64,000 bases of DNA, from the NCBI GenBank assembly GCA_964457245.1, contig CAYWET010000006.1, positions 21,098 through 85,097 of the forward strand. The letters are read 5' to 3'. Shown one piece after another: positions 47,019 to 64,000 of this stretch; within the stretch, counting starts at the first letter, position 1, and each line of letters begins with the position of its first letter. The notes under the pieces are model-generated. The model was not told the DNA's origin, did no database searches, and was given only the letters and a program-made list of their open reading frames with translations. The DNA is from an uncultured Chryseobacterium sp. (lineage in GTDB: Bacteria > Bacteroidota > Bacteroidia > UBA10329). Made by a program: the position numbers and the translations under genes.

Positions 47019-47031
47019 GCCGGAAAAGGAA

Positions 47032-48942
47032 ATGAAGAAACTGACCACCATTCTTTTTGTTTTGACTCCGATGCTTCCGTGTAGCGCCCAGATCAATTCA
47101 GATTCATTAATGATTGTGTGGAATGATAAGAGTAAGACCGATACGCTTCGTCTTATGGCAATCGAACAGCTGAGCACAGCCTTGGTGTTTTCAAATCCAG
47201 ATTCTGCCATTTCTCTTGCCCAGTTGCAGTACGAATTTGCATTAGGCAAAAGAAGGAAATGGGAGTGTAGCGCCTTGAACCTTCAAGGGCATGCTCTTGC
47301 GGTAAAAAGTCAGTATGAAGAAGCGGTGGTTCTTTACAGGAAAAGCCTTGAAGTAGGTAAGGAAATCGGTGATGAGACTGGAATGGCCAGAGCACTCAAC
47401 AATATTGGTCTGATACTCATGGATGTGGGTGATCTTCCAGAAGCTATCGAACACTTTCAGCAAAGCCTTCTGTTGAAGGAGAAAACGAATAATCCAGCAG
47501 AGGTTATTCCTGCACTGATAAACATTGCAAATCTATATGAGACCATAGGGGAACTCGATACTGCCATTAACCGTTATCGGAGGACTCTCGAAATCTGTAA
47601 TCAGGTCGGACACGTACGTGGTTCAGCTTACTGTCTTGGTAATATGGGTATGGTGTACAAGACCAAGGGTGAATTTAACATTGCAGATTCTCTGCTGAAC
47701 GAAGCACTCGTTTTAGGGAAACAGCTGAACGATCAGCAGGCAATTGCACGATGCTTTGCGGGTCTTGGAATGGTTCAGAAGGAACGCGGTGAATACATAA
47801 AAGCGCGGGATTTTTTTCTGCAATGCGTACAAATCGCTGAATCGGTAGAAGATAAAGAAGGAATCGGTGCCATCTACTACAATCTAGGCGAGGTTTACAG
47901 GCTTCAGGGAGATTTGAGTAAGGCTCAAATTTATGCGGAGAAAGCAATTGGAGTTGCTCGAAGTGTATCACATGCTGCAGATATTAGAAATGCCGCAGAA
48001 TCCCTCTACAAGATTTACAAAGCCACGAATAGCCCCTCAAAAGCACTTGTAATGCATGAATTGTACATCGCTATGCGCGACAGCATCATGAGCGAAGAGA
48101 ATCAGCGCGCCACAATCCGTACAGAGTTTCAGCACGATATGGATATGAAAGATGCGCAGATAAAACTGCTCGATGAGGAAAAGGCGCGTAAAGATGCGGA
48201 GGCAAGGGCAGAGCGTAACAAGCGTCTGTTAACGTTAGGTATTTCCGCTTCGTTGATTGTCATTCTTATTGGAGGGGCTTATTTTCTTCAACGCAATAGA
48301 AAACAGAAACATCAGGTTGAAATTACGCGTGCGGAATTAGAGAAAAAATTGGTGGAGAATGACTTTCTACGCTCTCAATTAGATCCACATTTTATCAAAA
48401 ACGCTCTTTACAATATCGACCGTCTTTTGGTGGAAGGAAAAACTGAAGAGGCGCAACGTTATAATGACCGCTTCTATAAACTGATGAACCTGACACTTGA
48501 CCATGCTAGAGAACAATTGATTGGTCTAGATGAGGAATTGGAGATGATGGAACAATATCTGTCGCTTGAGACCGATCGGCTTGGAAACCGCCTGCAGTGG
48601 TCTGTTACGGTGGCCGATGATGTTAACCCTGCCGATATAGAACTTCCACCAATGATTCTTCAACCACTGGTAGAGAATGCGCTGAAACATGGCGCGGATA
48701 TGAAAAGTGACAAGGGTGAAGTTAAACTGGAAGTTCGGGTTGAAAATGACCGAATTCTTTGCATTGTGGAGGACAACGGTGGCGGTATCGATCTGGAAAA
48801 GGTGAAACGCTCAACCTCGCATGGGTTGCGAATTACTACGGAGCGTCTTGAGATGTTCAGTAAGCTCAACCTTGCAGAAGCTAGGTTGGATATGCAAAAT
48901 ACCGGTAACGGTACACGAGCGGTGGTGTCATTTGCAGTTTAA
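47032..48942 (+). CDS. Paralogous TPR-sensor/LytS-type histidine kinase
   Basis: Same architecture. The C-terminal ~290 aa are near-identical to the upstream kinase; the TPR region is divergent. The start was taken at MKKLTTILF (the six-frame ORF begins at 46978, overlapping the upstream gene). Confidence 0.8.
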   Translation: MKKLTTILFVLTPMLPCSAQINSDSLMIVWNDKSKTDTLRLMAIEQLSTALVFSNPDSAISLAQLQYEFALGKRRKWECSALNLQGHALAVKSQYEEAVVLYRKSLEVGKEIGDETGMARALNNIGLILMDVGDLPEAIEHFQQSLLLKEKTNNPAEVIPALINIANLYETIGELDTAINRYRRTLEICNQVGHVRGSAYCLGNMGMVYKTKGEFNIADSLLNEALVLGKQLNDQQAIARCFAGLGMVQKERGEYIKARDFFLQCVQIAESVEDKEGIGAIYYNLGEVYRLQGDLSKAQIYAEKAIGVARSVSHAADIRNAAESLYKIYKATNSPSKALVMHELYIAMRDSIMSEENQRATIRTEFQHDMDMKDAQIKLLDEEKARKDAEARAERNKRLLTLGISASLIVILIGGAYFLQRNRKQKHQVEITRAELEKKLVENDFLRSQLDPHFIKNALYNIDRLLVEGKTEEAQRYNDRFYKLMNLTLDHAREQLIGLDEELEMMEQYLSLETDRLGNRLQWSVTVADDVNPADIELPPMILQPLVENALKHGADMKSDKGEVKLEVRVENDRILCIVEDNGGGIDLEKVKRSTSHGLRITTERLEMFSKLNLAEARLDMQNTGNGTRAVVSFAV

Positions 48943-48955
48943 GTAGTTTCGAAGA

Positions 48956-49705
48956 ATGATTCGCGCCATCATTATAGAAGACATCCAAGACCATAGGGAA
49001 TTGCTGAAAGAGCGCCTCGAGGATCATGATGATGTAACAGTTGTGGGCGAATTCGTGAATGCTGACAAAGGGCTTGTTGGAATTAGGCAACATAAACCTG
49101 ATCTGATCTTTCTTGATGTGGAAATGCCGTCTGGAATGAATGGATTGGAGATGCTTGAACAGATTCCCACCGATGATCGTGATTTCGGACTGATTTTTAC
49201 CACCATGCACGAGAAGTATGCGCGTAGGGCGATTGACATGGCATGTTTAGATTACCTAGACAAGCCAATTGTGGCTGAAAAGTTAGCCGAGGCTCTTAGA
49301 CGATTCAGAGAATCGGATAAGGAATCTCTGACCAAGCGCAACGGTATATTGGGCAAGGAGAACATGCTGGCAATTGCCAACATCCAAAAGGGGAAACGGT
49401 ACGAAACAATTGTTGATGCTCGAAACATCATATACTGCAAGGCAGACGGGAATTATACCGAATTCTATCTTAAAGATGGCCGCTTTTTATCCGCAAGCAA
49501 GGGCATCGCACATTACACTAAGTTGCTTGAATCATATGGAATGCTAAAGGTGCATCGGTCTTACCTGATAAATCTGAATCATGTCGATTCAATTGCCCAA
49601 GATGAAGTTATTATGAGAATGGAGGCACACCCGGAAAGTGTTAAGCGTTCCGTGTCTGTTTCCCGTGCCTATTCGCAGATTCTTCAGGCCCGCTTGTTGA
49701 GGTAA
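48956..49705 (+). CDS. LytTR-family two-component response regulator (receiver + LytTR DNA-binding domain)
   Basis: Receiver with acidic pocket IIIEDIQD and phospho-Asp context LIFLDVEMP. C-terminal LytTR pattern (...YCKADGNYTEFYLKDG...HRSYLINL...). Confidence 0.85.
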   Translation: MIRAIIIEDIQDHRELLKERLEDHDDVTVVGEFVNADKGLVGIRQHKPDLIFLDVEMPSGMNGLEMLEQIPTDDRDFGLIFTTMHEKYARRAIDMACLDYLDKPIVAEKLAEALRRFRESDKESLTKRNGILGKENMLAIANIQKGKRYETIVDARNIIYCKADGNYTEFYLKDGRFLSASKGIAHYTKLLESYGMLKVHRSYLINLNHVDSIAQDEVIMRMEAHPESVKRSVSVSRAYSQILQARLLR

Positions 49706-49954
49706 GTACCCTTCTGCTTTCTGACCAGTACCGCCATTTGCATAAGCGGTATTCTCCTGATTTTCCATTCGTACAGAGAATCCTACCATTCGACAGGAAA
49801 TGATGTCCATTCATACATCTTGATCTTCCTGTGCTCACTTCTCAAATACGTTTGCTCCTGTAATCGAAAACAAAAACATGAGCAAAGTTACCGGTCATAA
49901 AGTTCAAACCACCTCTTGTCAATTGAATGGCACAGTTCGGTTTGAACAAGGGTA

Positions 49955-50368
49955 ATGGACACTCGAAATAAAGAATTTAACAAACTGAATAAGATGAAAA
50001 ATCACCCTAAAACCATAGCAGTATTAGAACTCCTGCATGTGCTTGCCGAAGATGGGATACACCGTATGAGTTTGAACCAGATCACCTGTCTCAACTCATC
50101 AGGAGCTTACACTCACATTCATTACCTGAATGGGAAAAAAGTAGAGGTCGGCAAAAACCTGAGAAGGTTTGAAGAGGCATTGGAGCCGTACCAATTTTTC
50201 AGGGTGCACAAAAGTCACGTGGTGAACATGGAGCGTATAGAACGCTACCGTGCAACCAAAAGTGGAGGCACAGTGGAGCTTTCGGATGGCAGAACCCTAC
50301 CAGTGGCACGCTCCAGAAAATCAGCATTTCTCAAGGCATTCAAAGAACTGGCAACAGTAACCATATAG
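49955..50368 (+). CDS. Stand-alone LytTR DNA-binding domain protein (no receiver)
   Basis: 137 aa. LytTR pattern ...YTHIHYLNGKKVEV...FRVHKSHVVNMERI.... The start may be the internal Met at 49994. Confidence 0.7.
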   Translation: MDTRNKEFNKLNKMKNHPKTIAVLELLHVLAEDGIHRMSLNQITCLNSSGAYTHIHYLNGKKVEVGKNLRRFEEALEPYQFFRVHKSHVVNMERIERYRATKSGGTVELSDGRTLPVARSRKSAFLKAFKELATVTI

Positions 50369-52157: not shown

Positions 52158-53630
52158 ATGAAAACATTAGTAATTCAAAATACCGTTTCGCTGTTCATTG
52201 CAGCTACTTTGTCTATCAGTATTGCAGTGGCCAATCAGATAAACATGCAAGATGGAGTAACTGTAACAAGTTGTTCTGGAACAATTTACGATCATGCAGG
52301 ACCAAACGGAAGTATCCAATCGTATAGCAGCCATAGGGTTTTAACCATACGGTCTGCCGAGCCAAATAAAGCGGTTCAACTGGTCTTTGAAGAACTAAGG
52401 TTTGGATATAGCAACGCATTCAACCTGAAAATATATGATGGTGGTAACACTCAATCCCCGTTGCTGGTAGAGTTTACCACCGGATGGGACAACAGCCCCT
52501 ACATCGGCACGGGGATCATGGCCAATTCGGGAGAAATGACCCTTGAATTCACCTCAATATCGGTCTATCCTGCGCACGAAACGGCAGATGGTTGGAAGGC
52601 AAGTTGGAACTGTGTGGAAAAAAGTTACAACATGCAGAACGGAAGCGTGACCGCATGCGCTGGAGCACTGCACGATCCCGGAGGCCCCAGTGGTTCGAGT
52701 TCCGAGAATGAAACCTACATTTTTACTATAAACCCAGAAAGCTCCGGACAAGCAATTGTAATGGACATTCTATTCGCGAATCTATGGGTGAGTGATCTTA
52801 CTCTGTTCGATGGCTTAAACACAACCGCACCTGTTATATGGTCTGGAACTGGAATAATTACGGACATTCCGGCCCAAATAGCGCCTTCTGGAGCGATGAC
52901 CGTTGAACTGGTTGTCTCTGGTTCTTCAGCTCCGAATTTTCTTGGGGTTTGGCATTGCATAGATCAATCGGGCATTGAAATGTCAGACGGTACCACCGCA
53001 AGCTGTTTTGGCACTATCTATGACAGCGGAGGTCTTAATGGAGATTATTCTAATAATGAAGACCATACTTATGTAGTTTCAACCAACGAAGTGAACACGG
53101 TGATAGATTTCAGATTGTTTTCATTTGGCTCCGAATTTGGGCATGATACTCTTTGGGTGTATGATGGAGCAAGCGCTGACCCAGCGAACGTTTTAATTAC
53201 GGGTTCGGGTTATCTCAATGGGTCATCAATTTTTGTTAGTTCCAATTCCAATGCGATGACTTTCAGATTCAAGTCTGATGGTACCGGGACAGAGCGTGGT
53301 TTTATTGGAAACTGGTCATGTCGCGATACAATTTCAGCATGGTCGGTTAGCACTGGAGTTGAGGACCATCCTTATTCACTGGAATCTCCTATCATCTTTC
53401 CAAATCCATCAAGCGGACGGATGAACATGGTCATACCTTGGTCAACCCAGGATGTCGAGATACGAGTGTTCAATGCTATAGGTCAGATAATGCATCAAGA
53501 GCGGGTCGGGAATCTGACGAAAGGTGTTTCCAGAACACTGAACCTTTCAGATTTGATGGATGGCATCTATTGGTGTAATGTCAGCAGTAAAGAAAAAACC
53601 GCTTGCCAGAGAATTGTGATTCGGCATTGA
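52158..53630 (+). CDS. Secreted T9SS cargo protein with three CUB-like repeats and a C-terminal sorting domain
   Basis: Signal peptide. Thrice-repeated C-x-G-x-[IL]-x-D-x-G-G-x-x-G-x-Y modules. CTD ...FPNPSSGRMNMVIP...VEIRVFNAIGQ...GIYWCNV.... Confidence 0.65.
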   Translation: MKTLVIQNTVSLFIAATLSISIAVANQINMQDGVTVTSCSGTIYDHAGPNGSIQSYSSHRVLTIRSAEPNKAVQLVFEELRFGYSNAFNLKIYDGGNTQSPLLVEFTTGWDNSPYIGTGIMANSGEMTLEFTSISVYPAHETADGWKASWNCVEKSYNMQNGSVTACAGALHDPGGPSGSSSENETYIFTINPESSGQAIVMDILFANLWVSDLTLFDGLNTTAPVIWSGTGIITDIPAQIAPSGAMTVELVVSGSSAPNFLGVWHCIDQSGIEMSDGTTASCFGTIYDSGGLNGDYSNNEDHTYVVSTNEVNTVIDFRLFSFGSEFGHDTLWVYDGASADPANVLITGSGYLNGSSIFVSSNSNAMTFRFKSDGTGTERGFIGNWSCRDTISAWSVSTGVEDHPYSLESPIIFPNPSSGRMNMVIPWSTQDVEIRVFNAIGQIMHQERVGNLTKGVSRTLNLSDLMDGIYWCNVSSKEKTACQRIVIRH

Positions 53631-53807
53631 CCTCATTCGAAAACGTACTGGTTAACCCCGTATCCAAGATTCGTTGGTTAAGGAATGAGGCCGGGTGTTG
53701 TTCGCGTACATTTTACTACTTTTCGACTAAACTGTTAATTTGGCCGACCAATGAGGTGCTTTTTGAGCTATAGCACAAAAGGGCGATTATACCAAGAAAC
53801 CAATACG

Positions 53808-54968
53808 ATGAAAATAAATTCAATCATAGCAGGACTCATGTTGTTCTGGGTCACAGCCGCACAGGCTCAGTTTGGAGTGGGGGCAAGAGTAGGTGTTTCT
53901 ATGAGTACCATGGTTGGGGTCCGTGGTGCCGATCTGATTCCAAACCCAGGTTTGGTAACGGGCGTTTCCGGAGAGTTCCGATTGGTGGATAATCAGTCGC
54001 TTTCGTTCTACCTACAACCAGAATTCGCATTAGAGCAAAAGGGCTATGCCACCAAATTTACTTCGGGTAGTTTCAGGTCCGAAACCCAATATAATTTTGA
54101 TTATGCCTCTTTACCTGTTGCAGCCAAACTGATTTTTGGAAGCGGCAAATTCAAAGGGGGAATAAATGTGGGAGTTGCTCCTGCCTTGCTTATTGGAAGG
54201 TATGCACAGTACAAGAACAGCGATGGTGATAGGAGTAGGACTGTAATAAGCAGGAGTAGCGTAAAGGTTTTTGACATCAATGCCTTTATTGGCGGAGTGA
54301 TGGAGTATGCGCTTGGTCCTGGGGCCCTTTTTGCTGACCTCAGGTATACGCAGGGCTTTGTAGACCCATTTTCCAGCTACTTGGCAAAGCCTCACCTTGG
54401 TTCCAGTTACCTGAATGCATCGCCATCGTTTTCGGTGGGTTACGTTTTCAGAATAGGTGGAGGTAAGACATCTTCGGTTCCTTCCGGAAGTTCGTATTCA
54501 GATCCGTCTGATTCGGGTTTTACCGACATTGAGAACACCCAAGAAGAACCTGAAACCGTTTGGGAAGATGAAAGCGAACCTGTTGAAACCCGCCCCTCAA
54601 CGATAGATGAAGAAGTTAGCAAATCAAGTTCGCAGGAGCTAAGGCCTTCGCCCAAGCCGCGTGAGAACACGGCAGCGGTCAGTTCAGATTTTGAGGAAAT
54701 GATCGAACTCAACAAACACTTTGACGTGATTGCTGATGTACATGCATCAGACACCGATAAAGAGATCAGTAAAACTGAGATTCTTAGCAGGTTCAAACAT
54801 GGAGACGTTCTGGTAAAGATTGAGATTGATAAGGTGGTCGTTGACTATTTCGGCATCAACGAGTTTCTTGGTGCTATCCGTCTCAATCATTCCCGGTATA
54901 AAATTGCCGACCGTATTAAGGATGAAAACGGCATGATTAGCGAAATAACCATGCGTAAGATCGGATAA
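53808..54968 (+). CDS. Outer-membrane beta-barrel protein fused to a C-terminal domain of unknown function
   Basis: Signal peptide MKINSIIAGLMLFWVTAAQAQ. Porin-family-like beta pattern over ~220 aa. Ser-rich linker. C-terminal ~130-aa soluble domain. The six-frame ORF starts at 53751. Confidence 0.55.
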   Translation: MKINSIIAGLMLFWVTAAQAQFGVGARVGVSMSTMVGVRGADLIPNPGLVTGVSGEFRLVDNQSLSFYLQPEFALEQKGYATKFTSGSFRSETQYNFDYASLPVAAKLIFGSGKFKGGINVGVAPALLIGRYAQYKNSDGDRSRTVISRSSVKVFDINAFIGGVMEYALGPGALFADLRYTQGFVDPFSSYLAKPHLGSSYLNASPSFSVGYVFRIGGGKTSSVPSGSSYSDPSDSGFTDIENTQEEPETVWEDESEPVETRPSTIDEEVSKSSSQELRPSPKPRENTAAVSSDFEEMIELNKHFDVIADVHASDTDKEISKTEILSRFKHGDVLVKIEIDKVVVDYFGINEFLGAIRLNHSRYKIADRIKDENGMISEITMRKIG

Positions 54969-54981
54969 GCTTTTTAAGGAT

Positions 54982-55557
54982 ATGATGAGATCAATAGTAT
55001 TTGTTGTAGGGGTTCTTCTTTTGGGTTCGGAATTGAAAGCTCAGGACCTGAATCTTACTGAGCAAGAGCGTGCCGCATTTGCGCAACAGGCACTTGAGAA
55101 AGCGCGGGAATTGAGTATGTACATAGACAAACTCTGCAACAAGAGCACACCATCCTCAATTCAAGTAGAGGCCATGGATTTGGCTTTAGACCTTTTTAGA
55201 GACCACGAACGAATAGTTGAAGTTTCGAAAAAGAACTCTGATGACCTACTTTACCCCACTATTGACCGTTACCTCAATCGGTTAGTGAACTATAACTACA
55301 CCAAAGTGGAGGTGACATGGTACGATGTTTCCTATGCTTCTGACCTGAAACCAGGAACCGATGGCCGTTACTACGGAACCATAACCGTGTTTCAAAAATT
55401 TGTGGGTTATGTTGGGGATGGCATTGTAGCATACGAAGACGTTACGCAGAAAAACATTGAGGTGATACTGGAACCGCGCATCAAACGTGTTGGAGATCAA
55501 GAATTCGAGGCTCTCATTGTTCTTCTTGGTGACATTCAGGTAATGCAGACCGAATGA
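54982..55557 (+). CDS. Secreted hypothetical protein, 191 aa
   Basis: Signal peptide. The ORF stop overlaps the next start (ATGA). Confidence 0.55.
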   Translation: MMRSIVFVVGVLLLGSELKAQDLNLTEQERAAFAQQALEKARELSMYIDKLCNKSTPSSIQVEAMDLALDLFRDHERIVEVSKKNSDDLLYPTIDRYLNRLVNYNYTKVEVTWYDVSYASDLKPGTDGRYYGTITVFQKFVGYVGDGIVAYEDVTQKNIEVILEPRIKRVGDQEFEALIVLLGDIQVMQTE

Positions 55558-56408
55558 GCAAGAAACTACTCTTACCTATTCTAGTTATTGTTTTCCAACT
55601 CCCATTAAGTGTGTTAGGGCAGTCTGTTGGTAAGCAGGTAGTGGAGCACGAGTTGAAATTATTGGTCAAGAACTACGATGAGTTCATGGCGCGGTTCAAC
55701 TTTACCATGGATCCTTTCGGTAACCCCATTAAAGACACAGCCCATGTTTACTTGGAAAACGTAGCAGGGATTCAAAAAATTGATCGAAAACTCTCAGTGT
55801 CGTTCCTTATTGATGCGGAACTTTGCGAACGACATCCAGATTTGTGCGAACGTTTTGTGGATGATGTTACTGACAAGGAAAATCCGTATTTGCTCAATTT
55901 CCATGACCCGAATTGGTACTGCGTGCGGCCCGCAACGGTCAGGTTCAACGGGAGTGAACAAAGCCTTAGTCTAACCATGCAGGTGGAAGTTCATGACGGG
56001 CGACAGTCAAAATGGGTAATCTGTGGTGTAGATGCTCCCTTTCTGCCTGCGATAAAAACGGAGCACGACAAAGATCGACTCATTGCACCAGATAGCAACA
56101 GCAGCGGTTTTGTGGCGCTAAGACGTGCTTTTGAAGATGTTGAACACTTTGATGAATACCTGCCGAGGAGTTTTGGAACTGATGGACTGACTCGTTTGGC
56201 CACGGCTTGCAAAAACGGGCAGCTGGAATATGTCAGTGCTAAAGGGCAACAGGAGTATCATCTGCTTCAAATACCGGGCTGGGTTGTAATGATTCAATAT
56301 TTCAAACGGAAAGATGGTAATCGAGGGTGGCTTATTTCTGAACTGCACCCGTTAACGGATGAGGAAAAAGAAATCTATTTGAAGGAATATCTCAACATCG
56401 GTCAATGA
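55554..56408 (+). CDS. Secreted hypothetical protein, 284 aa
   Basis: Signal peptide MSKKLLLPILVIVFQLPLSVLGQ. 4-bp overlaps with both neighbours. Confidence 0.55.
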   Translation: MSKKLLLPILVIVFQLPLSVLGQSVGKQVVEHELKLLVKNYDEFMARFNFTMDPFGNPIKDTAHVYLENVAGIQKIDRKLSVSFLIDAELCERHPDLCERFVDDVTDKENPYLLNFHDPNWYCVRPATVRFNGSEQSLSLTMQVEVHDGRQSKWVICGVDAPFLPAIKTEHDKDRLIAPDSNSSGFVALRRAFEDVEHFDEYLPRSFGTDGLTRLATACKNGQLEYVSAKGQQEYHLLQIPGWVVMIQYFKRKDGNRGWLISELHPLTDEEKEIYLKEYLNIGQ

Positions 56409-58699
56409 GGTGGTTGATACATATCGTTTTGGTGTTGATTCCCATGGCCGGGGTTGCACAGCAAACTTTTGAGGTAAGTCCCACAGAAAAGGAACAGTTT
56501 GTTCGAGATGCACAATCGGTTGTAAAAAGGTATGGTTTAAATCTCATTGAATTAGGCGACAGTCTGCGAGAGCCGTGGGAAAAGCAAGTAGAAGAAGTGG
56601 CCATCCTGAACCTGTTCGATCGAACGGATGTCCTGGTTCCGAATGATATTGACGCGTCTGGAGAACAATCCAAGGAAAAATCAATTTCAGCGTATCTAAG
56701 TACTCTGAAAATCAATTATTCTCGCTTTGGACTGGATATTGATACACGAATAGATCGCTCACGGAGCAACGCTTTATATATAGATTCGAAAAGCGCTAAT
56801 CCATACCTGTTTGTGAAGGTGGTGGTGGAGAGAAGCCTGAAAGGAAAGAATGATCAAGACATTTCGATTGACACCACCTTGTGGTTGGATGTTTATGTAC
56901 TTTATTGGCTTAACGGAGACGGAACGTATGACCCCAATGCCTACATCTATGCAATAGAACCGCACGACCCTGACACCAAGTATGAACAGGTGCCGATAAA
57001 GGGAGAACGGCCACAAGCTGTCGCCAGAGTAGATCAACAGACCATCACCAGCCCAACGACACCTAAACCGACCGAAGAGAGCGTGCCTACGGCTCAAAGC
57101 CAACCGAAGCAAACAGATACGGACTCTCAAAAGACTGTTCCGGTTCCCCAAGAACCCAAGGATTGTCCATACAAACCACCACGTTTTGTTTCTTCATCTG
57201 ACCACAAAAGGTTATGGAAGGAATTTGTTTATTCCAGCAACGCCTACAGGAAGGCAGTACTTGAGAAGGGTGTACGTGGAAGCGGAACCATCTGGTTTAC
57301 CGTTAAGGCTGATGGCGCTATATACGACCCAACACTGGGGATTGACTCTGAAGTATTTGAAGGCAAAGAATATGCGATAAAGGAGGTTGCTCAACAGTTG
57401 ATGACCGAAAGTTCATCAAACGGAAACGCTTGGATTCCTGCAGAAGCCAACTGCGAAAAGGTTGCCCGTCAGGTAAGTGAGGAGGTGACCTTTGAATTAC
57501 ACAGAGTTAAGAGCAAAGGTTCTGAACTCACGCCTTCTAACAGGGTTCAGGTTCCTCAGAATGAGATTCCTCCTAAGCCGCTATCTAGAAAACAACAACG
57601 GAGAGGCGAAAGAGCGAATCGCAAGGAGGAAAGAGCGTGTGCCGAAGAATACCGTAGACCTAGATTCAACTCCTGCAGCAGGCACAAAAAGGAGTGGAGG
57701 GCATACGTTGGTAAGAACAACCTTTTTGTTAAGGCGGTTTTACAGGATGGGGTAAGAGGGTTTGTTGATGCAAGTGCGAGCATTACCAGAAATGGAGATA
57801 TAGAACCGGGCTCTACGCGAATAAGGCTTGGAAACCATGTGCGAAAACGGTTTGAGGCAACAGATGTAGCTATAAAACTCATTGAAGGAAGCACGGAGGG
57901 GAATAACAAGTGGATACCAGGAAAGCATCAAGGCGCAGCCGTTCAGAAACGAGGTGGCGTACACCTAGCCTATGGTAAAAGTTGGCTTGACCCGAATACT
58001 GCGATTGAATCGGGTCTGTTGACCGAACGTGGGAAGCGTAAAATGAAACGTAAAGCCGCATGGCTAGACCATAAGAAGGAAAAGATCGGAGGGGTTCATT
58101 TCAACATCGGGGGAGGTTACGCTTTTCCACTTGGTGCCAATGGGTTTAAGGGCGGTGTAGCTGAAGCTGCTTTTGGTGGATTGTTTGGGCATCATGTTGG
58201 AATGGAATTGAAATATCGGACGGTTATCGATCAGCAAGCGGGAAGATGGTTTGAGAATCTTTCTTCCAAGGCACAGACTTTCGTTCAAGTAGATAGGGCC
58301 AGTACGCTTCTTCACACATTAAGTTTGGGCTTAATATTTAACACCTCTAAAAAGCGGGTAAGACCTTACTTTACGATTCATGGTGGAGTCAATTGGCTCA
58401 GTATAGATGTAAAAGGTCAAGCTCAAGATTTCGGAGATGCTTCACCTCGATATGGTGCTGTTAGGTATTCTACCGACATGGGGTGGCACTTATCTCCTGG
58501 GTTCGGAATAGACTTCAAGATTCCGAAATATGGTAGCTTTTTCATTGCAGGAGAATTTAGCATGTACATACTCAATTTTCGGCCAATGGAATTTGATGCC
58601 AACCTAGGCTCCAATATTATTTTGTTTAGCAATCATTTCAGCTTAGGAGACAATTTGCAATTACCGGTGACCATTGGCTTCCGATTCTCCAGGTGGTAA
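56405..58699 (+). CDS. Secreted protein with two TonB-C-like domains and a C-terminal outer-membrane beta-barrel-like region
   Basis: Two segments (WKEFVYSSNAYRKAVLEKGVRGSGTIWFTVKADGAI and WRAYVGKNNLFVKAVLQDGVRGFVDASASITRNGDI) resemble the TonB C-terminal fold motif. C-terminal Gly/aromatic-rich beta pattern ending ...IGFRFSRW. Confidence 0.5.
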   Translation: MRWLIHIVLVLIPMAGVAQQTFEVSPTEKEQFVRDAQSVVKRYGLNLIELGDSLREPWEKQVEEVAILNLFDRTDVLVPNDIDASGEQSKEKSISAYLSTLKINYSRFGLDIDTRIDRSRSNALYIDSKSANPYLFVKVVVERSLKGKNDQDISIDTTLWLDVYVLYWLNGDGTYDPNAYIYAIEPHDPDTKYEQVPIKGERPQAVARVDQQTITSPTTPKPTEESVPTAQSQPKQTDTDSQKTVPVPQEPKDCPYKPPRFVSSSDHKRLWKEFVYSSNAYRKAVLEKGVRGSGTIWFTVKADGAIYDPTLGIDSEVFEGKEYAIKEVAQQLMTESSSNGNAWIPAEANCEKVARQVSEEVTFELHRVKSKGSELTPSNRVQVPQNEIPPKPLSRKQQRRGERANRKEERACAEEYRRPRFNSCSRHKKEWRAYVGKNNLFVKAVLQDGVRGFVDASASITRNGDIEPGSTRIRLGNHVRKRFEATDVAIKLIEGSTEGNNKWIPGKHQGAAVQKRGGVHLAYGKSWLDPNTAIESGLLTERGKRKMKRKAAWLDHKKEKIGGVHFNIGGGYAFPLGANGFKGGVAEAAFGGLFGHHVGMELKYRTVIDQQAGRWFENLSSKAQTFVQVDRASTLLHTLSLGLIFNTSKKRVRPYFTIHGGVNWLSIDVKGQAQDFGDASPRYGAVRYSTDMGWHLSPGFGIDFKIPKYGSFFIAGEFSMYILNFRPMEFDANLGSNIILFSNHFSLGDNLQLPVTIGFRFSRW

Positions 58700-58717
58700 C
58701 AACTAAAAACAGATCAC

Positions 58718-60214
58718 ATGAAACAAAGCTTTAGCCTCCTTCTTTTAATGATTTTGAGCCACGCGGTCATTTCGCAGAACTGCAACCTTACCGAAGACCG
58801 AAAAGACGGCTACGGGAACATACTTCGTGGTACAGAATGGTCATATACCGATGCCAGTGGCAACTACATGCACCTTCAGTTAGACCGAACCAAGGATCGA
58901 TATACGTTTGTTGTTAGTCTGGATCAGCCCACAAGTAGCGCGGTTAGGTTTAAGATAGATGGAGAGATTCATCCTATCATATTCAATCTTAGCAATGGAG
59001 CAACCGCTAAAGCTTGGGTAAGCGAAAGCCGTGTCTATGAAAGCGAGAACGGTACAGACCGCGTAGCATTTGCAGAACAGTACACTTTTGATGCTTCTGG
59101 TCTTGCAAACTTTGATAATGCAAGAGTAACCGCCATTGTTTTCCGATGCAGTGGTCGCTCGCTTTCAACAGGAAATGCGGTGAATGAAATTCGAATTGTT
59201 CCTGATCTCGAAGCTGGAGAAAGTCTGAGTAATGCCATGAGTTGTCTTCAGAAAGAAGATGAAGCAGTTGCGCTCAAACCAGCTCCCAAACCACGAAAAG
59301 AGTCGCATGCAATCACTACTTCCACTTCAGGAAGCGCCACTTCAGACGCTCTAATGAGAGAACTGATCCAAGTAGTTGGAGAAGGCACCAAGAACATTGA
59401 TGAAAGTGTGAAAGAAAGTGGCACTACCCAAATGGAACAGAACATGTTGATGATGGAGAAGCTTGAAAACCTTTCCGCGGCCATAGAAAAACTCAACGAA
59501 ACCAAAAAAGAGGAAAAGGAATTTGTACCACGTGTATTCGGATTTGGTGCTTACTTCAAAACCAATTTTCTTTTTAGCGAAATTGATATGAACTACGGAC
59601 TGGCGGAAGCTCAGGTTTCTAAATTCCTTTCTGGAACCAGTATTAACATGTCATTGAATGCAGGGATGAGGGCTCGTGTTGGTTTTAGGTTTGAGATTAC
59701 TGCCGATTTTCTTACGTCTTTCAACGAGGTCGTTAAGTACACCGATAGCATCTACCCTCGAACAGTTACTCCCGACACCATTTATTTTGGACAACCGTAT
59801 CTTGAAACGTTTGAAAGAAGTCAAACCTGGTCGTTCTATGATGTTGGTTTGAACCCCTTGCTTGTCATTCGAAGGGGTAAGGTGAACATTTATCTCGGTT
59901 TGTCAGCATCATACATCAGGATTGAAGGAAAGTACAAGGATTCGAGCCCAAGTCAGCTTCAGGATCGTAAAGAGACAGGACAGATAACCGCGTTCAGACA
60001 AGGGGTATCACTTGGGTTTATTTTAGGAGGGGAGTATCTTATTACACCGCATTTTGGCGTTCGGGTTGAATCTGGATTAAGGTATTTTGGCATCGGAAAA
60101 ACGGTAATAAGCAGCAATGACTTATTTGAATATGATGATGACTCGAGTGTAGGGGACAATCGGCAAAACGTTTTCGGTTCGTTCGCGAGAATAGGCGGGA
60201 GTTTTTATTTCTAA
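58718..60214 (+). CDS. Secreted hypothetical protein with a C-terminal beta-barrel-like domain, 498 aa
   Basis: Signal peptide. C-terminal alternating pattern ending ...FARIGGSFYF (terminal aromatic). Confidence 0.5.
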   Translation: MKQSFSLLLLMILSHAVISQNCNLTEDRKDGYGNILRGTEWSYTDASGNYMHLQLDRTKDRYTFVVSLDQPTSSAVRFKIDGEIHPIIFNLSNGATAKAWVSESRVYESENGTDRVAFAEQYTFDASGLANFDNARVTAIVFRCSGRSLSTGNAVNEIRIVPDLEAGESLSNAMSCLQKEDEAVALKPAPKPRKESHAITTSTSGSATSDALMRELIQVVGEGTKNIDESVKESGTTQMEQNMLMMEKLENLSAAIEKLNETKKEEKEFVPRVFGFGAYFKTNFLFSEIDMNYGLAEAQVSKFLSGTSINMSLNAGMRARVGFRFEITADFLTSFNEVVKYTDSIYPRTVTPDTIYFGQPYLETFERSQTWSFYDVGLNPLLVIRRGKVNIYLGLSASYIRIEGKYKDSSPSQLQDRKETGQITAFRQGVSLGFILGGEYLITPHFGVRVESGLRYFGIGKTVISSNDLFEYDDDSSVGDNRQNVFGSFARIGGSFYF

Positions 60215-60231
60215 ATTAAAAGAAGCAGATT

Positions 60232-60771
60232 ATGTCAACGCAGACTGTAGTCGTAGTCAATCAAAAGAGCATGGCCGTTGGCCTACTGCTCACTTTTTTC
60301 TTTGGGCCTTTAGGTATGTTGTATTCAACAGTTTTAGGTGCAGTGATCATGTTCTTCGTTAACATATTGGCATTCGTTTTTACGGCAGGTATCGGCCTCT
60401 TGCTTACTTGGCCCATTGGCCTGATTTGGTCAGGAGTTGCCATCAGCAGTCATAATAGTAATCTTGTTTCTACCGGTGCCGCCACTCCACACCAAAAAAA
60501 CCAAGAAGCACAGGCCCCAAGTGCGCCCGTTACAGAGCGACCCGCTGCAACAGATCAACCACCAGTTGAAAAGACAACTCCCGCCAAAGCTTACCAAACT
60601 GTACCCAAGGCTTCGGGCTGTGCCAAGTGTGGAACCGAGATGGAAGCGGATGACAAATTCTGTTTCAACTGCGGCACCGAAAGAAAACAACAGCAGTTTT
60701 GTGCAAATTGTGGAAACACAATAACGGCCAATAACAAGTTCTGCAGTGGTTGTGGCGCCAAGGTAGCTTAA
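60232..60771 (+). CDS. TM2-domain membrane protein with a C-terminal double zinc ribbon
   Basis: Two TM helices with a GPLGMLYS motif (TM2-like). Two CxxC...CxxC pairs (CAKCG...CFNCG; CANCG...CSGCG). Confidence 0.55.
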   Translation: MSTQTVVVVNQKSMAVGLLLTFFFGPLGMLYSTVLGAVIMFFVNILAFVFTAGIGLLLTWPIGLIWSGVAISSHNSNLVSTGAATPHQKNQEAQAPSAPVTERPAATDQPPVEKTTPAKAYQTVPKASGCAKCGTEMEADDKFCFNCGTERKQQQFCANCGNTITANNKFCSGCGAKVA

Positions 60772-60802
60772 CCCCTAATATGAACCTTAAATACCCGTTA
60801 AC

Positions 60803-61546
60803 ATGAACTTTCTCACCTTCCTGTTTCCTTACATAGAAACCGTTACATCGGGAAGCTTTCTCCGAAAATTCTTTGGTATCCTGTACAAGGTTTTCGGCTG
60901 GTTTTTCTTTGGTGGCAGTATTGTAGCCATGCTTATGGGGTTGTTTGCCGCATTCAAAACAGAGCAGATGATGATTGTGCTCGGATCACTGTTCACGGCT
61001 CCGATATTGGCGGCTGGCGGTTATTTGCTTTTGCAGATAAGCCTTTACAGGTCTAAGACACTTACAGAATTGACCAAAGAAGATTATACCGCCATTCCAA
61101 TTGTTTCCATTTTTCTTCGGTACGTGGGCGAACTTTACTTTGCTGTGGTACTTGTTCAAGGGCTCATAATGCTTATAGGTTCTTTGTTTGTTGCAAATTC
61201 GTTTTTCGGTGGATTTTCGTCTATGTTGCATTGGATAGATTTGCCATTTGTTAATGAGTTACGATACAACGGAGGGGCGTTTGTTGCAGTCCTTCTTATG
61301 TACGTAGCTGCGCTTATCGGTGGGGTGCTCGTATTGTTGTTCAGTTATCTGTTGGCAGAACTGGTAGTTGTGCTGGCAGAGATAGCTTCCAACACCAGAA
61401 AGCTGAATACAGGGGTGTCGGTTCCGTTAGAAGAACAGGGCACTTCGATTACTGAAGAAGCCCCCCGGCCTGGCAAATGTTCGGCCTGCGGACAACAGAA
61501 TACCGAAGAAGACACTTTCTGTATCAACTGTGGCAATAAACTCTGA
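60803..61546 (+). CDS. Polytopic membrane protein with a C-terminal zinc ribbon
   Basis: ~6 hydrophobic helices. C-terminal CSACG...CINCG. Confidence 0.55.
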   Translation: MNFLTFLFPYIETVTSGSFLRKFFGILYKVFGWFFFGGSIVAMLMGLFAAFKTEQMMIVLGSLFTAPILAAGGYLLLQISLYRSKTLTELTKEDYTAIPIVSIFLRYVGELYFAVVLVQGLIMLIGSLFVANSFFGGFSSMLHWIDLPFVNELRYNGGAFVAVLLMYVAALIGGVLVLLFSYLLAELVVVLAEIASNTRKLNTGVSVPLEEQGTSITEEAPRPGKCSACGQQNTEEDTFCINCGNKL

Positions 61547-61551
61547 ACACC

Positions 61552-62838
61552 ATGTACTGTACTTCTTGCGGCAATCAACTTAAAGAAGGACAGAAATTCT
61601 GTCCAAAATGCGGCACACCCTCAAAGGCCGCAACAAAAACCGGCCTCGCACAAAATACTGCTGATAAAAACCTTGAAAAGGAAAGGTTGAGGCAACAGGC
61701 AGAGCAAAAGCGAATTAAAGAAGAACAGGAGGCCAAAGAACGAGAGGCTGCTAGAGAAAAACGGCAACAGGAAGAGGCCGAAAAAAGGTTGGCGATTGCC
61801 AAGGCGGAAGAGGAACGAAAAAAGCAGGAAGAACTCCAACGACAAGCTGAGTTAGAAAGAAAGGCAAGAGAAGAGGCCGAAAATGCAGCGCGTAAACAAC
61901 TTGAACAACGGGAAAGGAAGCGGATGGAGGAAATGCGTATGCCGCTACCAGACTCAATCTTACTTGCAGTGCGAACCTCTTTGCTGGAGCATGGAGTTTT
62001 TAACCAGGAACAGGTTGACGACATCTATAGAAAGACCAGAGCAGCAGGAATTGACGATGCGCGTACAAAGTTTCAATTGGAATCGGAGCTTGAACGATTT
62101 GAAAAACGGACTGTCTCACCGGTTGTGAAGGAAAAGAAGAAACCCAAACGCAGTTGGGTTGGATTGGTGTGGTTTCTTGGCATACTTCTTATCCTGGCCC
62201 TTTTGGTAGGGTTTGGTTACGTCTTCCGGCTTGAGGTATTGAATACCTTGGATAATTGGGGCCTACAGACCACAGCCCTCCGCGGAAAGTTGGGCGTAGA
62301 GAGTCAGACCAGGGTCATCGATACCATCATGGTAGATAAATTGAATGATGCCGAGGTAGGTAAGATTGAAGAACCAGACCTTACTGCAATGGAGGAATCT
62401 GATGTAATAGAAGATTCCGTTGAAGTTGGTGAGAATGAGCATGTCGGAGAAGCCGAAATCTCAACCAAAGCCGTCTATAAACCTGACCCAAAGCCTGAAC
62501 CAGTTCCTAAAACACCTCAATCTCCCAAGATCTATTCCGTTGTGGATGTCTCACCCGAATATCCGGGAGGTACCAAAGGGCTACAGTCTTTTATTGAAAG
62601 AAATATGCGCTATCCGGTCGAAGCTCGAAGAAAAGACCAAACAGGAACAGTATTTCTCAAGTATGAAGTAACCTCTGCGGGAAGTATTGGCGAGGTTCAA
62701 GTAATTCGGGGAGTTGCGCCTTCCCTAGATCAAGAAGCCGTTCGCATCATTAAAAGCATTAGTGGTTACAGCCCTGGATATAAGGACGGAAAAGCTGTCA
62801 GCACTTACCAAAATACTAAGGTTAGATTCATGTTGTGA
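61552..62838 (+). CDS. TonB-C-terminal-domain protein with an N-terminal zinc ribbon and a long ER/K-rich single alpha-helix on the cytoplasmic side of its TM segment
   Basis: N-terminus MYCTSCG...CPKCG. ~90-aa E/R/K-rich helix. TM helix WVGLVWFLGILLILALLVGFGYVF. C-terminal YSVVDVSPEYPGG...GTVFLKYEVTSAGSIGEVQVIRG... matches the TonB_C fold motif. Confidence 0.65.
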   Translation: MYCTSCGNQLKEGQKFCPKCGTPSKAATKTGLAQNTADKNLEKERLRQQAEQKRIKEEQEAKEREAAREKRQQEEAEKRLAIAKAEEERKKQEELQRQAELERKAREEAENAARKQLEQRERKRMEEMRMPLPDSILLAVRTSLLEHGVFNQEQVDDIYRKTRAAGIDDARTKFQLESELERFEKRTVSPVVKEKKKPKRSWVGLVWFLGILLILALLVGFGYVFRLEVLNTLDNWGLQTTALRGKLGVESQTRVIDTIMVDKLNDAEVGKIEEPDLTAMEESDVIEDSVEVGENEHVGEAEISTKAVYKPDPKPEPVPKTPQSPKIYSVVDVSPEYPGGTKGLQSFIERNMRYPVEARRKDQTGTVFLKYEVTSAGSIGEVQVIRGVAPSLDQEAVRIIKSISGYSPGYKDGKAVSTYQNTKVRFML

Positions 62839-62983: not shown

Positions 62984-64000
62984 TTATAATAGTTCATTCG
63001 CCAAATTGGCCAACTCAGAACGCTCACCTTTCTCTAGTGTAACGTGAGCGTAGATTGGATTTCCTTTTACTTTCTCAATCAAATACGAAAGGCCGTTACT
63101 CTGCGTGTCCAAGTATGGCGTGTCAATCTGGAAAATATCTCCCGTAAAGATAATCTTGGTGTTCTCACCCGCACGGGTAATGATGGTTTTCACTTCGTGA
63201 GGAGTGAGGTTCTGCGCTTCATCAATAATGAAGAAGATGTTGGAAAGACTTCGCCCACGGATGTACGCCAAAGGCGTGATAAGCAGTTTTTCCTGCTCAA
63301 CCATTTGCTGTATCTGCTTAGCTTCTTTGCCTTTCTCTGGAAACTGACTCTGAATAAACTTCAGGTTATCCCAAAGCGGCTCCATGTATGGATTGATCTT
63401 ACTCTTGATGTCTCCAGGCAAATAGCCGATGTCCTTATTACTCAGCGGAACAATCGGTCTTGCGAGGAAAATCTGTCTGAAATCACGCTTTTGTTGCAGC
63501 GCACCCGCTAAAGCCAGAAGCGTTTTCCCCGTTCCAGCCACGCCTTGTAGCGTAACCAGTTTTACATTCGGGTCGAGAATGGCATGCAGGGCAAATACTT
63601 GCTCAGCATTCAGTGGTCTGATGCCGTAGGCCGTGGCTTTTTCAATTCGATGAAGCAGCCCACTTTCAGGATTGTTGTGAACCAATGCCGACTTTTTGCC
63701 ATTCTTCAGCACATAGTAATGGTTGTTCGGAGCATTTTTTAAACCAACCTTGTCGGGTTCGCAAGTTCCGTCCTTATACAGCTCGTTTATGGTGGTTGAT
63801 GAAATGCCTTCAACGGTGCTTTCTCCCTTATATATGGAGTCGACATCTTTGATTTTGCCCGTTTCGTAATCTTCCGCAAATACATTCAGCGACTTGGCTT
63901 TCAACCGTAGGTTAATGTCTTTACTCACCAAGACAACCTTGCGCTCTTTACACTCGGCTTGCAATGCCAAAGCCGCATTCAGAATTTTATGGTCGGCCTT
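62984..64000 (-). CDS. PhoH-like ATPase with an upstream PIN domain (YlaK-type); the N-terminus runs off the window
   Basis: Walker A GVAGTGKT. PhoH-type motifs ...NIFFIIDEAQNLTPHEVKTIITRAGENTKIIFTGD. ORF open to the window edge. Confidence 0.8.
   Translation of the reverse strand, partial: KADHKILNAALALQAECKERKVVLVSKDINLRLKAKSLNVFAEDYETGKIKDVDSIYKGESTVEGISSTTINELYKDGTCEPDKVGLKNAPNNHYYVLKNGKKSALVHNNPESGLLHRIEKATAYGIRPLNAEQVFALHAILDPNVKLVTLQGVAGTGKTLLALAGALQQKRDFRQIFLARPIVPLSNKDIGYLPGDIKSKINPYMEPLWDNLKFIQSQFPEKGKEAKQIQQMVEQEKLLITPLAYIRGRSLSNIFFIIDEAQNLTPHEVKTIITRAGENTKIIFTGDIFQIDTPYLDTQSNGLSYLIEKVKGNPIYAHVTLEKGERSELANLANELL

Follow-up and report, generated by a model that had tools for sequence, protein, structure and literature searches.

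A rare trio of zinc-ribbon membrane proteins, one with an ER/K-like helix and a TonB_C domain: a possible envelope-spanning complex of uncultured marine Bacteroidota

Why would a bacterium encode three zinc-ribbon membrane proteins in a row, and close the series with one that carries a TonB C-terminal (TonB_C) domain? The question is raised by a 64,000-nt stretch of DNA from an uncultured Chryseobacterium sp. (contig CAYWET010000006.1; hereafter, the window), in which three adjacent genes, A, B, and C, were found on the + strand of the open reading frame (ORF) list at 60232-62838 (Table 1), encoding products of 179, 247, and 428 aa, respectively. A first-pass annotation, made by a model without database searches, had described three consecutive zinc-ribbon membrane proteins here, and both the ORFs and Pfam bear this out. 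What we show by computation is the domain content and topology of the trio, the packing of its operon, its synteny, and its rarity. In the reading we prefer, to which we assign a probability of roughly 45%, A, B, and C would sit at the inner-membrane end of a complex that spans the envelope and is specific to a lineage of marine Bacteroidota, with C serving as a GltJ-like adaptor and not as a TonB for nutrient uptake.

The C-terminal domain of C is a true TonB_C, as had been proposed. Pfam PF03544 matched aa 351-427 with 57.3 bits (cut-off, 24.6), NCBIfam TIGR01352 was passed as well (33.2 bits versus 27.1), and Foldseek aligned the domain with solved TonB C-terminal domains at template-modeling scores of 0.6-0.75. 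The protein has only one transmembrane (TM) helix, aa 201-224, and since this is preceded by the basic patch KEKKKPKR and followed by a net acidic flank, C is predicted to lie with its N-terminus in and its C-terminus out. With a C4 ribbon on one side of the helix and TonB_C on the other, this is also the only sensible orientation. The first-pass annotation had called the topology of C inverted; the charges flanking the TM helix instead indicate the ordinary orientation of TonB, and the unusual feature of C is its 200-residue cytoplasmic head. It had also set C against canonical TonB for the latter's Pro-rich periplasmic spacer. That contrast is false, since C too has a periplasmic spacer of ~95 residues, acidic and predicted to be disordered (predicted local distance difference test, pLDDT, <50 over aa 242-327 in the AlphaFold2, AF2, model), with a Pro/Lys-rich end, KPDPKPEPVPKTPQSPK, directly before TonB_C.

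Between the ribbon and the basic patch lies a long charged segment. Its core, aa 40-128 (89 residues), is 87% E/R/K/Q/A, lacks Pro altogether, and has a net charge near 0; 55% of its residues are charged and 13% hydrophobic, opposite charges are paired at i/i+4 26 times versus ~15 expected, and the best occupancy of heptad a/d positions is 0.21. The four full-length orthologues carry segments of 81-113 residues that are 48-60% charged and 9-13% hydrophobic, with opposite-charge pairs above those of shuffled sequences (i/i+4, ~1.5-4 standard deviations in each direction; i/i+3, 2.6-5 standard deviations), and a heptad register is absent from all four (best a/d occupancy ≤0.22). AF2 modeled the segment as a single unbroken helix with pLDDT of 88-95 and a length of ~15 nm. 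The segment thus fits an ER/K single alpha-helix (SAH), and it is probably cytoplasmic since it is placed between the C4 ribbon and the basic patch that precedes the only TM helix; composition, charge pairs, position, and model all support the initial description in this respect. Like the ER/K SAHs of myosin VI/VIIa/X, INCENP, and the CAF-1 KER, it combines this composition with i/i+4 charges, no heptad, a length of ~100 residues, and a place between two functional modules, and a PDB sequence search gave a weak compositional match to a myosin VIIa SAH chain (5wsu). Unlike them, it belongs to a membrane protein of bacteria, in which it joins a zinc ribbon to a domain close to the membrane. Neither a dimeric coiled coil nor a periplasmic helix like that of TolA seems at all likely to us for this segment. 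NCBIfam TolA matched C aa 33-124, yet with 20.9 bits against a cut-off of 213 and on composition, and although a monomer AF2 model cannot exclude dimers, the strongly hydrophobic a/d occupancy is low, there is no register, and the segment's position is on the cytoplasmic side of the membrane.

Alignment of C with its relatives (A1, with P0016 and the truncated L048 copy) showed five conserved blocks, namely the ribbon, a domain of ~57 residues, the TM helix, a juxtamembrane segment, and TonB_C, while both linkers vary freely in length and sequence. The ribbon is near-invariant among orthologues (M[FY]C[TR][ST]CGNQL.E.QKFC.KCG), and the juxtamembrane segment, which is FRxEVLNTLDNWGLQTTALR on the periplasmic side of C, has the consensus FR...L...D.WG..T...R. 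The ~57-residue domain (consensus PLPD..L...RT.L...G....DD......) reads PLPDSILL...DDIYRKTRAAGI...ELERFEKR in C and is kept in 6/6 relatives; AF2 predicted three helices and no beta strands (pLDDT, 81-89), and no Pfam family matched at E≤10 except DUF7535, which was below threshold (E=0.0065, 16.6 bits versus a 27-bit cut-off). Foldseek matches to homeodomain-like folds were non-significant (E 0.4-0.9), and a helix-turn-helix reading of the domain was not adopted. In one relative, P0016, ~150 aa of acidic, disordered, Pro/Ser/Thr-rich linker stand in place of the ER/K helix. Considering this exchange and the 81-113-aa range of the other segments, a fixed length is not required by the C family, and the 'ruler' idea first suggested is weakened; what the family has kept is a ribbon tethered away from the membrane-proximal domain.

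The ribbons themselves are ordinary members of Pfam DZR and Zn_Ribbon_1, and those of A, B, and C all score above the Pfam gathering threshold. Their CxxC pairs had been recognized correctly, but with a spacing of ~10-17 residues, whereas all five are CxxC-x10-CxxC. Many proteins that are unrelated to one another and come from various phyla start with a ribbon of the form MFCxxCGxxL...FCxxCG, and a minimum of two among them (in L012 and L030) are membrane proteins; A, B, and C differ from the usual DZR and Zn_Ribbon_1 proteins in that two or three are encoded in a row, with one ribbon ending a protein and the next beginning the following one. Protein A ends in a double ribbon (aa 130-178, nt 60619-60765; Zn_Ribbon_1 twice, 48.8 bits; DZR, 36.4 bits), which a Pro/Thr/Gln linker joins to a hydrophobic block of 58 residues, equivalent to two to three TM helices (aa 14-71, nt 60271-60444). 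It had been taken for a TM2-type protein; no match to TM2 (PF05154), nor to any Pfam family whatever on aa 1-91, was obtained at E≤10.

Protein B carries its ribbon at the extreme C-terminus (aa 225-247, nt 61475-61543; Zn_Ribbon_1, 27.5 bits), and its sole further Pfam match is a weak one to DUF4282. Six TM helices had been proposed for it, but hydropathy and a low-confidence AF2 model agree on four long helices (aa 18-51, 56-84, 97-133, and 158-205, spanning nt 60854-61417), the last joined to the ribbon by a short linker; with pLDDT of 57, the model was too weak for a fold search. Since basic residues occur at the N-terminus, in the loop between helices 2 and 3, and in the region after helix 4, both termini of B are probably cytoplasmic. 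An independent argument that the two ends face the same side comes from P0163, a distant relative (28% identity), which bears its ribbon at the N-terminus rather than at the C-terminus (alignment A8).

The ribbons of B and C are encoded back to back (window 61520-61560). The gap between the two genes is 5 nt in the window and in the related loci L001, L004, and L048, and 2 nt in L042. When the tail of B and the head of C were joined in silico, Pfam DZR matched from end to end with 37.6-40.4 bits, a score like that of A's native double ribbon. We did not accept this as a sign of gene fission, since any two tandem ribbons would match.

A motor could conceivably reside in B itself. In such a scheme B, or B with A, would be a new ion-driven substitute for ExbBD whose TM Arg and Glu residues conduct ions, the paired ribbons clamping B to C and the ER/K helix giving way like a compliant spring whenever C exerts a pull on outer-membrane (OM) proteins. 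The residues R106/G109/E110 and A185/E186 are invariant in the TM helices of B down to 28% identity, the single-TM proteins that replace B in L004 and L042 keep a Glu ('LLREV' and 'FRELV'), the 5-nt gap is conserved, no ExbBD was found nearby among the scanned ORFs, and SAH domains are described as constant-force springs (PMC4183817). We nevertheless find the scheme quite improbable, since it is wholly inferential: B matches DUF4282 only, and weakly, its AF2 model is of low confidence, its four-helix body is reduced to one TM helix in L004 and L042, and a motor may be encoded elsewhere. An extension of it, in which A, B, and C would be the inner-membrane core of an undescribed machine, with a DUF4282-like B in place of ExbBD, clamped to C through a double ribbon split between the two proteins, the ER/K helix as spring or lateral spacer, and the periplasmic arm of C acting on dedicated OM barrels that bear TonB_C-like domains, is likewise a long shot.

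An eight-gene + strand block (53751-62838), in which neighbors overlap by 4 nt or lie 5-31 nt apart, ends with A, B, and C. Loci L001/L002 (TARA) and L004 keep its gene order, and L044-L046 and L048 keep parts of it: an OM protein, a protein of 189 aa, one of ~270 aa, one of ~800 aa with TonB_C-like repeats, one of ~480 aa, the product of a variable slot, a membrane protein with a ribbon, and the zinc-ribbon-TonB_C protein. The variable slot, third from the end, holds A in the window and L048; in L001 it is taken by a helical protein without relation to A, and in L004 by an M48 peptidase that ends in a ribbon. This last gene (L004 8692-9603) encodes an HtpX-like peptidase fused to the ribbon and hints at regulated proteolysis in that lineage. 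The second slot from the end carries a C-terminal CxxC-x10-FCxxCG[NK]K[LI] ribbon in every locus that retains the upstream gene; its product has the four helices of B in L001 and L048, as in the window, and is a protein of 101-102 aa with one TM helix in L004 and L042. The pair formed by the B-ribbon and C-ribbon genes was found in four further loci retaining the upstream gene, and the complete trio in one closer relative, L048. Since the ribbon gene pairs recur, the arrangement of A, B, and C is not due to chance, and the recurring unit is a gene for a ribbon-bearing membrane protein next to one for a ribbon-headed bitopic protein.

Two more distant loci bear on this unit. In L043, which encodes P0016 (GCA_020635495.1), the neighbors are entirely different, yet a membrane protein with a C-terminal ribbon, e771, is encoded three genes upstream of the C-type gene. 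The same region (L043 335-5636) contains, besides this 771-aa protein with its long acidic tail and ribbon, two paralogues (309 and 351 aa) as well as a protein of 324 aa for which a weak match of bactofilin-like type was obtained (E=0.008). On an unrelated high-GC contig (L047 352-2113), the gene for the distant B relative with the N-terminal ribbon precedes one for a bitopic protein that has a Pro-rich linker and, at its N-terminus, three ribbons. Pairs of ribbon membrane proteins may therefore be a general feature that extends past the Bacteroidota.

The C architecture is exceedingly rare. An exhaustive hidden Markov model search of 1.84 billion cluster representatives returned 62,311 TonB_C proteins at E≤0.001, of which only P0002, P0004, and P0016 match C outside TonB_C, the other best matches being proteins with tandem TonB_C repeats; the architecture is thus neither widespread nor annotated as ordinary TonB. 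A word-indexed search with C had found four full-length relatives (words from the ER/K segment may crowd the candidates), and the exhaustive search added P0016 only. Counting P0001, P0003, and the L048 fragment, C-type proteins total six, all from metagenomic contigs or metagenome-assembled genomes, and the B family has four members. Two scans of Joint Genome Institute metagenomes with juxtamembrane and mid-domain patterns gave no C-family member, and a scan with A1 of GTDB genomes, a collection that does not include the window's own genome, using patterns drawn from the ribbon itself, gave unrelated N-terminal ribbons of many phyla and zero C-family members. The cluster is therefore very rare and confined to a few uncultured marine Bacteroidota.

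Could C simply be one more TonB? Bacteroidota carry many TonB paralogues, and C resembles TonB in being bitopic with the N-terminus in and the C-terminus out, in the Pro/Lys-containing periplasmic spacer, and in the fold of the C-terminal domain, which has the Bacteroidota-type lead-in PEYPGG...YP; its nearest domain-level matches are TonB-family proteins. C would then drive a TonB-dependent transporter (TBDT) through ExbBD from another locus, with its ribbon and ER/K helix as dispensable or merely regulatory decoration, and A and B would be unrelated to it. Several observations make this unlikely. The TM helix of C lies 200 residues from the N-terminus, behind a cytoplasmic extension of that length. 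In E. coli TonB, the TM helix has a Ser/His (SHLS-type) motif used in coupling to ExbB/ExbD; the TM helix of C lacks it, and none of five aligned relatives has His there and one of five has Ser, although a motif of E. coli TonB may not apply to Bacteroidota. No match to MotA_ExbB, ExbD, TolQ, or a TonB-dependent receptor was found among the scanned ORFs of the window or in the related, including syntenic, loci; the window scan covered most ORFs of at least 110-120 aa, including one of the three ~1540-aa paralogues described below, L001 and L004 were covered by precomputed Pfam lists, and L043 by a direct scan of its called genes. In addition, the C-type gene is tightly coupled to a ribbon partner gene, and this coupling is conserved. 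Finally, conservation is higher in the ribbon, the three-helix domain, and the juxtamembrane segment than in either linker, which argues against decoration that could be dispensed with.

Alternatively, the trio might be a trans-envelope signaling relay of the anti-sigma or BlaR type, in which TonB_C senses an OM event and the ribbons hold or release a transcription factor such as an upstream LytTR protein. The window does contain two adjacent genes for tetratricopeptide repeat (TPR) proteins with a LytS-type histidine kinase, a receiver-LytTR regulator, and a stand-alone LytTR protein (44592-50368), M56/BlaR-type peptidases with TonB_C occur among the matches to C (P0007 and P0008), and the variable slot of L004 holds the M48 peptidase with its ribbon. 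Yet the LytTR genes (48956-49705 and 49955-50368) and both TPR-histidine kinase genes lie ~4-10 kb upstream of the cluster, outside the conserved synteny, and in L001 and L004 an AhpC/thioredoxin-like gene stands where the window has the LytTR genes. The ribbons are C4 and not HxxxCxxC, neither they nor the three-helix domain match a Pfam DNA-binding or sigma-binding family, and no sigma factor or zf-HC2 match was found by Pfam among the scanned ORFs. We therefore doubt this reading. The first-pass annotation had suggested a trans-envelope signaling device in place of an energy transducer, and had likened the ribbons to anti-sigma or signal-relay proteins and named the LytTR proteins as candidates for an interaction test. 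Of this, the last two parts fall away, while the first accords with the lack of ExbB, ExbD, and TBDT genes among the scanned ORFs and related loci and with the precedent of GltJ, whose ribbon is regulatory (PMC11135422).

GltJ (AgmX, MXAN_4862) of M. xanthus is the closest characterized analogue of C. Its published layout begins with a cytoplasmic zinc ribbon (residues 1-42) and a flexible linker of 95 residues, after which come a GYF domain, a single TM helix, a periplasmic region that is again flexible, and TonB-C; the ribbon binds both the linker of GltJ itself and MglB, serving as a switch for focal-adhesion turnover (PMC11135422). In the same gliding machine, GltG consists of FHA, TM, and TonB_C, and GltA, GltB, and GltH are small OM barrels (PMC3169522). 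C has the same order of parts as GltJ, i.e., an N-terminal C4 ribbon, a linker of ~95-100 residues, a small domain, the TM helix, a flexible periplasmic region, and TonB_C, and the gene sets of both encode small OM beta-barrel proteins. The linker is an ER/K helix in C and disordered in GltJ; moreover, C has a second ribbon protein gene just upstream, belongs to another phylum, and is accompanied in the window by no MglA/MglB, AglZ, or AglRQS gene. With proteins of the GltG/NfsG type (FHA-TM-TonB_C), C shares a TonB_C combined with a cytoplasmic protein-interaction domain, which in that type serves an envelope-spanning complex, but GltG has FHA where C has the ribbon, lacks an ER/K helix, and is linked to a TolQR-like motor. 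C thus looks like a variant of the GltJ/GltG-type TonB_C proteins with cytoplasmic heads.

By analogy with these proteins, the eight-gene operon would encode the whole of an envelope-spanning complex. C would bridge the envelope, its periplasmic arm and TonB_C reaching the OM beta-barrels encoded in the same operon, w405, w764, and w498 (Table 1), where TonB_C would dock most likely by strand pairing, as other TonB_C domains do, or onto the TonB_C-like repeats of w764. On the cytoplasmic side, the ribbon of C would be a protein-docking module, its likeliest partners being the ribbons of B and A, which would be co-translated with C, or a cytoplasmic factor common to them. The ER/K helix (12-17 nm) would keep this ribbon off the membrane-proximal three-helix domain, or let it sweep around that domain, and could either fix the reach of the ribbon or serve as a compliant element. 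Such a complex would couple a cytoplasmic component to the outer membrane, structurally or as a switch. In this scheme, we infer every physical contact and the role of the helix.

Several observations weigh against this proposal. The likeness between C and GltJ is one of published layout: the small domain is three-helical in C and GYF in GltJ, and no match to GYF or GYF_2 was obtained on C aa 125-260 at E≤10. PDB sequence searches gave TonB C-terminal domains and meaningless short ribbon matches only, with no GltJ ribbon entry among them. No gene for a motor (ExbBD, TolQR, AglRQS, or GldLM) or for an MglA/MglB-like protein was detected among the scanned ORFs of the window or in the related loci. 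In L043, the C-type gene has no OM barrel genes around it on a 7-kb contig, so that the link to the outer membrane is either not universal or not visible there, and the P0016 encoded there does without the ER/K helix. Lastly, alignments of just 3-5 sequences make for weak AF2 models of the membrane parts (predicted template-modeling scores of 0.28 and 0.41).

The five upstream genes would give the proposed complex its outer-membrane side. In w405, an OM beta-barrel at the N-terminus is joined by an acidic linker of Ser and Pro to a C-terminal domain of ~95 aa, an order like that of OmpA; since its signal peptide begins at Met20, the listed ORF probably starts 19 codons too early. The secreted proteins w191 and w284 match no known family (w191, Pfam and NCBIfam; w284, Pfam); genes for 189-aa proteins occupy the position of w191 in L044-L046 too, and w284 has just six relatives in 5.8e9 proteins. 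w764 comprises a signal peptide, an N-terminal domain, a Pro/Thr linker, two repeats, and a C-terminal OM beta-barrel ending in IGFRFSRW. The repeats (nt 57164-57499 and 57638-57979) aligned with TonB_C domains by hhalign with a probability of 96.5% (E=7.3e-10), and the relatives in L001 and L004 have three. Each of these repeats lies between conserved Cys residues, and TonB_C-like domains on an OM barrel are unusual. w498 has a signal peptide, an N-terminal domain, a charged stretch rich in Glu, Lys, and Met (aa 228-268), and a C-terminal OM beta-barrel ending in GGSFYF. The C-terminal domain of w405 and the N-terminal domain of w764 matched in blastp with E=4e-4, which in a tiny database is not significant, and a domain common to w191, the N-terminus of w764, and the C-terminus of w405 was rejected, since its hhalign probabilities (≤59%) were inflated by signal peptides. 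Scans for promoters and terminators returned counts at the level of shuffled sequence, the consensus used being unsuited to Bacteroidota.

Table 1. Positions of the eight cluster genes and of the parts of gene C in the window, with the basis of each assignment
Feature	Coordinates (nt)	Strand	Basis or remark
w405, first cluster gene	53751..54968	+	OMP_b-brl_2, E=4.6e-16; 59-63% identity to first gene of L001, L004
w191, secreted, signal peptide	54982..55557	+	57-58% identity to same-position 189-aa proteins of L001, L004
w284, secreted	55554..56408	+	Overlaps both flanking genes by 4 nt; same position in L001, L004, L044, L045, L046
w764, OM barrel with TonB_C-like repeats	56405..58699	+	hhalign; weak Pfam OMP_b-brl
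w498	58718..60214	+	OMP_b-brl, E=7e-6, 26.7 bits, just under cut-off; 50% identity to d480 of L004
Gene A, small membrane protein	60232..60771	+	Pfam DZR, Zn_Ribbon_1; counterpart in L048
Gene B, 4-helix membrane protein with C-terminal ribbon	60803..61546	+	Zn_Ribbon_1, weak DUF4282, AF2 helices
B-C intergenic gap, 5 nt	61547..61551	+	Stop of B to start of C
Gene C, whole	61552..62838	+	ORF list
C, zinc ribbon, predicted cytoplasmic, aa 2-23	61555..61620	+	Pfam Zn_Ribbon_1, 33.5 bits, E=3.4e-8; alignment A1
C, ER/K single-alpha-helix-like segment	61639..61938	+	AF2 helix aa 30-129; E/R/K/Q/A core aa 40-128
C, three-helix domain, predicted cytoplasmic, aa 131-187	61942..62112	+	Conservation, AF2
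C, basic patch KEKKKPKR and single TM helix, aa 194-224	62131..62223	+	Hydropathy peak 2.82, flank charges
C, periplasmic juxtamembrane segment and acidic disordered spacer (predicted)	62224..62535	+	Alignments A1, A5; AF2 pLDDT
C, periplasmic TonB_C domain, aa 329-427	62536..62832	+	Pfam, TIGR01352, Foldseek

The neighborhood of the cluster is rich in surface proteins. Two proteins with a C-terminal sorting domain of the type IX secretion system, one of which has CUB-like repeats, flank the region (52158-53630 and 37342-39129), and in L004 a 1891-aa PKD/CHU_C protein is encoded just downstream of the cluster. Such sorting domains, together with OMP_b-brl_2, DUF6089, and CHU_C, point to Bacteroidota. 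Near the start of the window, three tandem ORFs of 1535-1545 aa on the - strand (330-4937, 5362-9999, and 10034-14659) look like paralogues; the one that was scanned has Peptidase_S74 (endosialidase chaperone) near its C-terminus, as found in tail-fiber-like or self-cleaving surface proteins. Convergent with the cluster is a - strand gene of the PhoH2 type (PIN and PhoH; 62984-64000), which passes the end of the window (328 aa listed versus 444 aa in L039). A defense-system reading was rejected since a PADLOC scan returned no matches.

The value of these observations is limited by the nature of the family, which is tiny, has metagenomic contigs of uncultured organisms as its sole source, and has yet to be tied to a phenotype. 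TonB_C proteins with large cytoplasmic heads are known from one well-studied machine, the Agl-Glt gliding apparatus of Myxococcus. If our preferred reading is true, the plan of GltJ would be a general solution and not a myxobacterial oddity, built in these marine Bacteroidota from an ER/K rod, a new three-helix domain, ribbon partners, and OM barrels that bear TonB_C-like repeats of their own. C would also add to the few membrane proteins of bacteria with an ER/K single helix, and the trio would offer a handle on the function of the Zn_Ribbon_1 and DZR modules that are very common, though uncharacterized, in the membrane proteins of bacteria.

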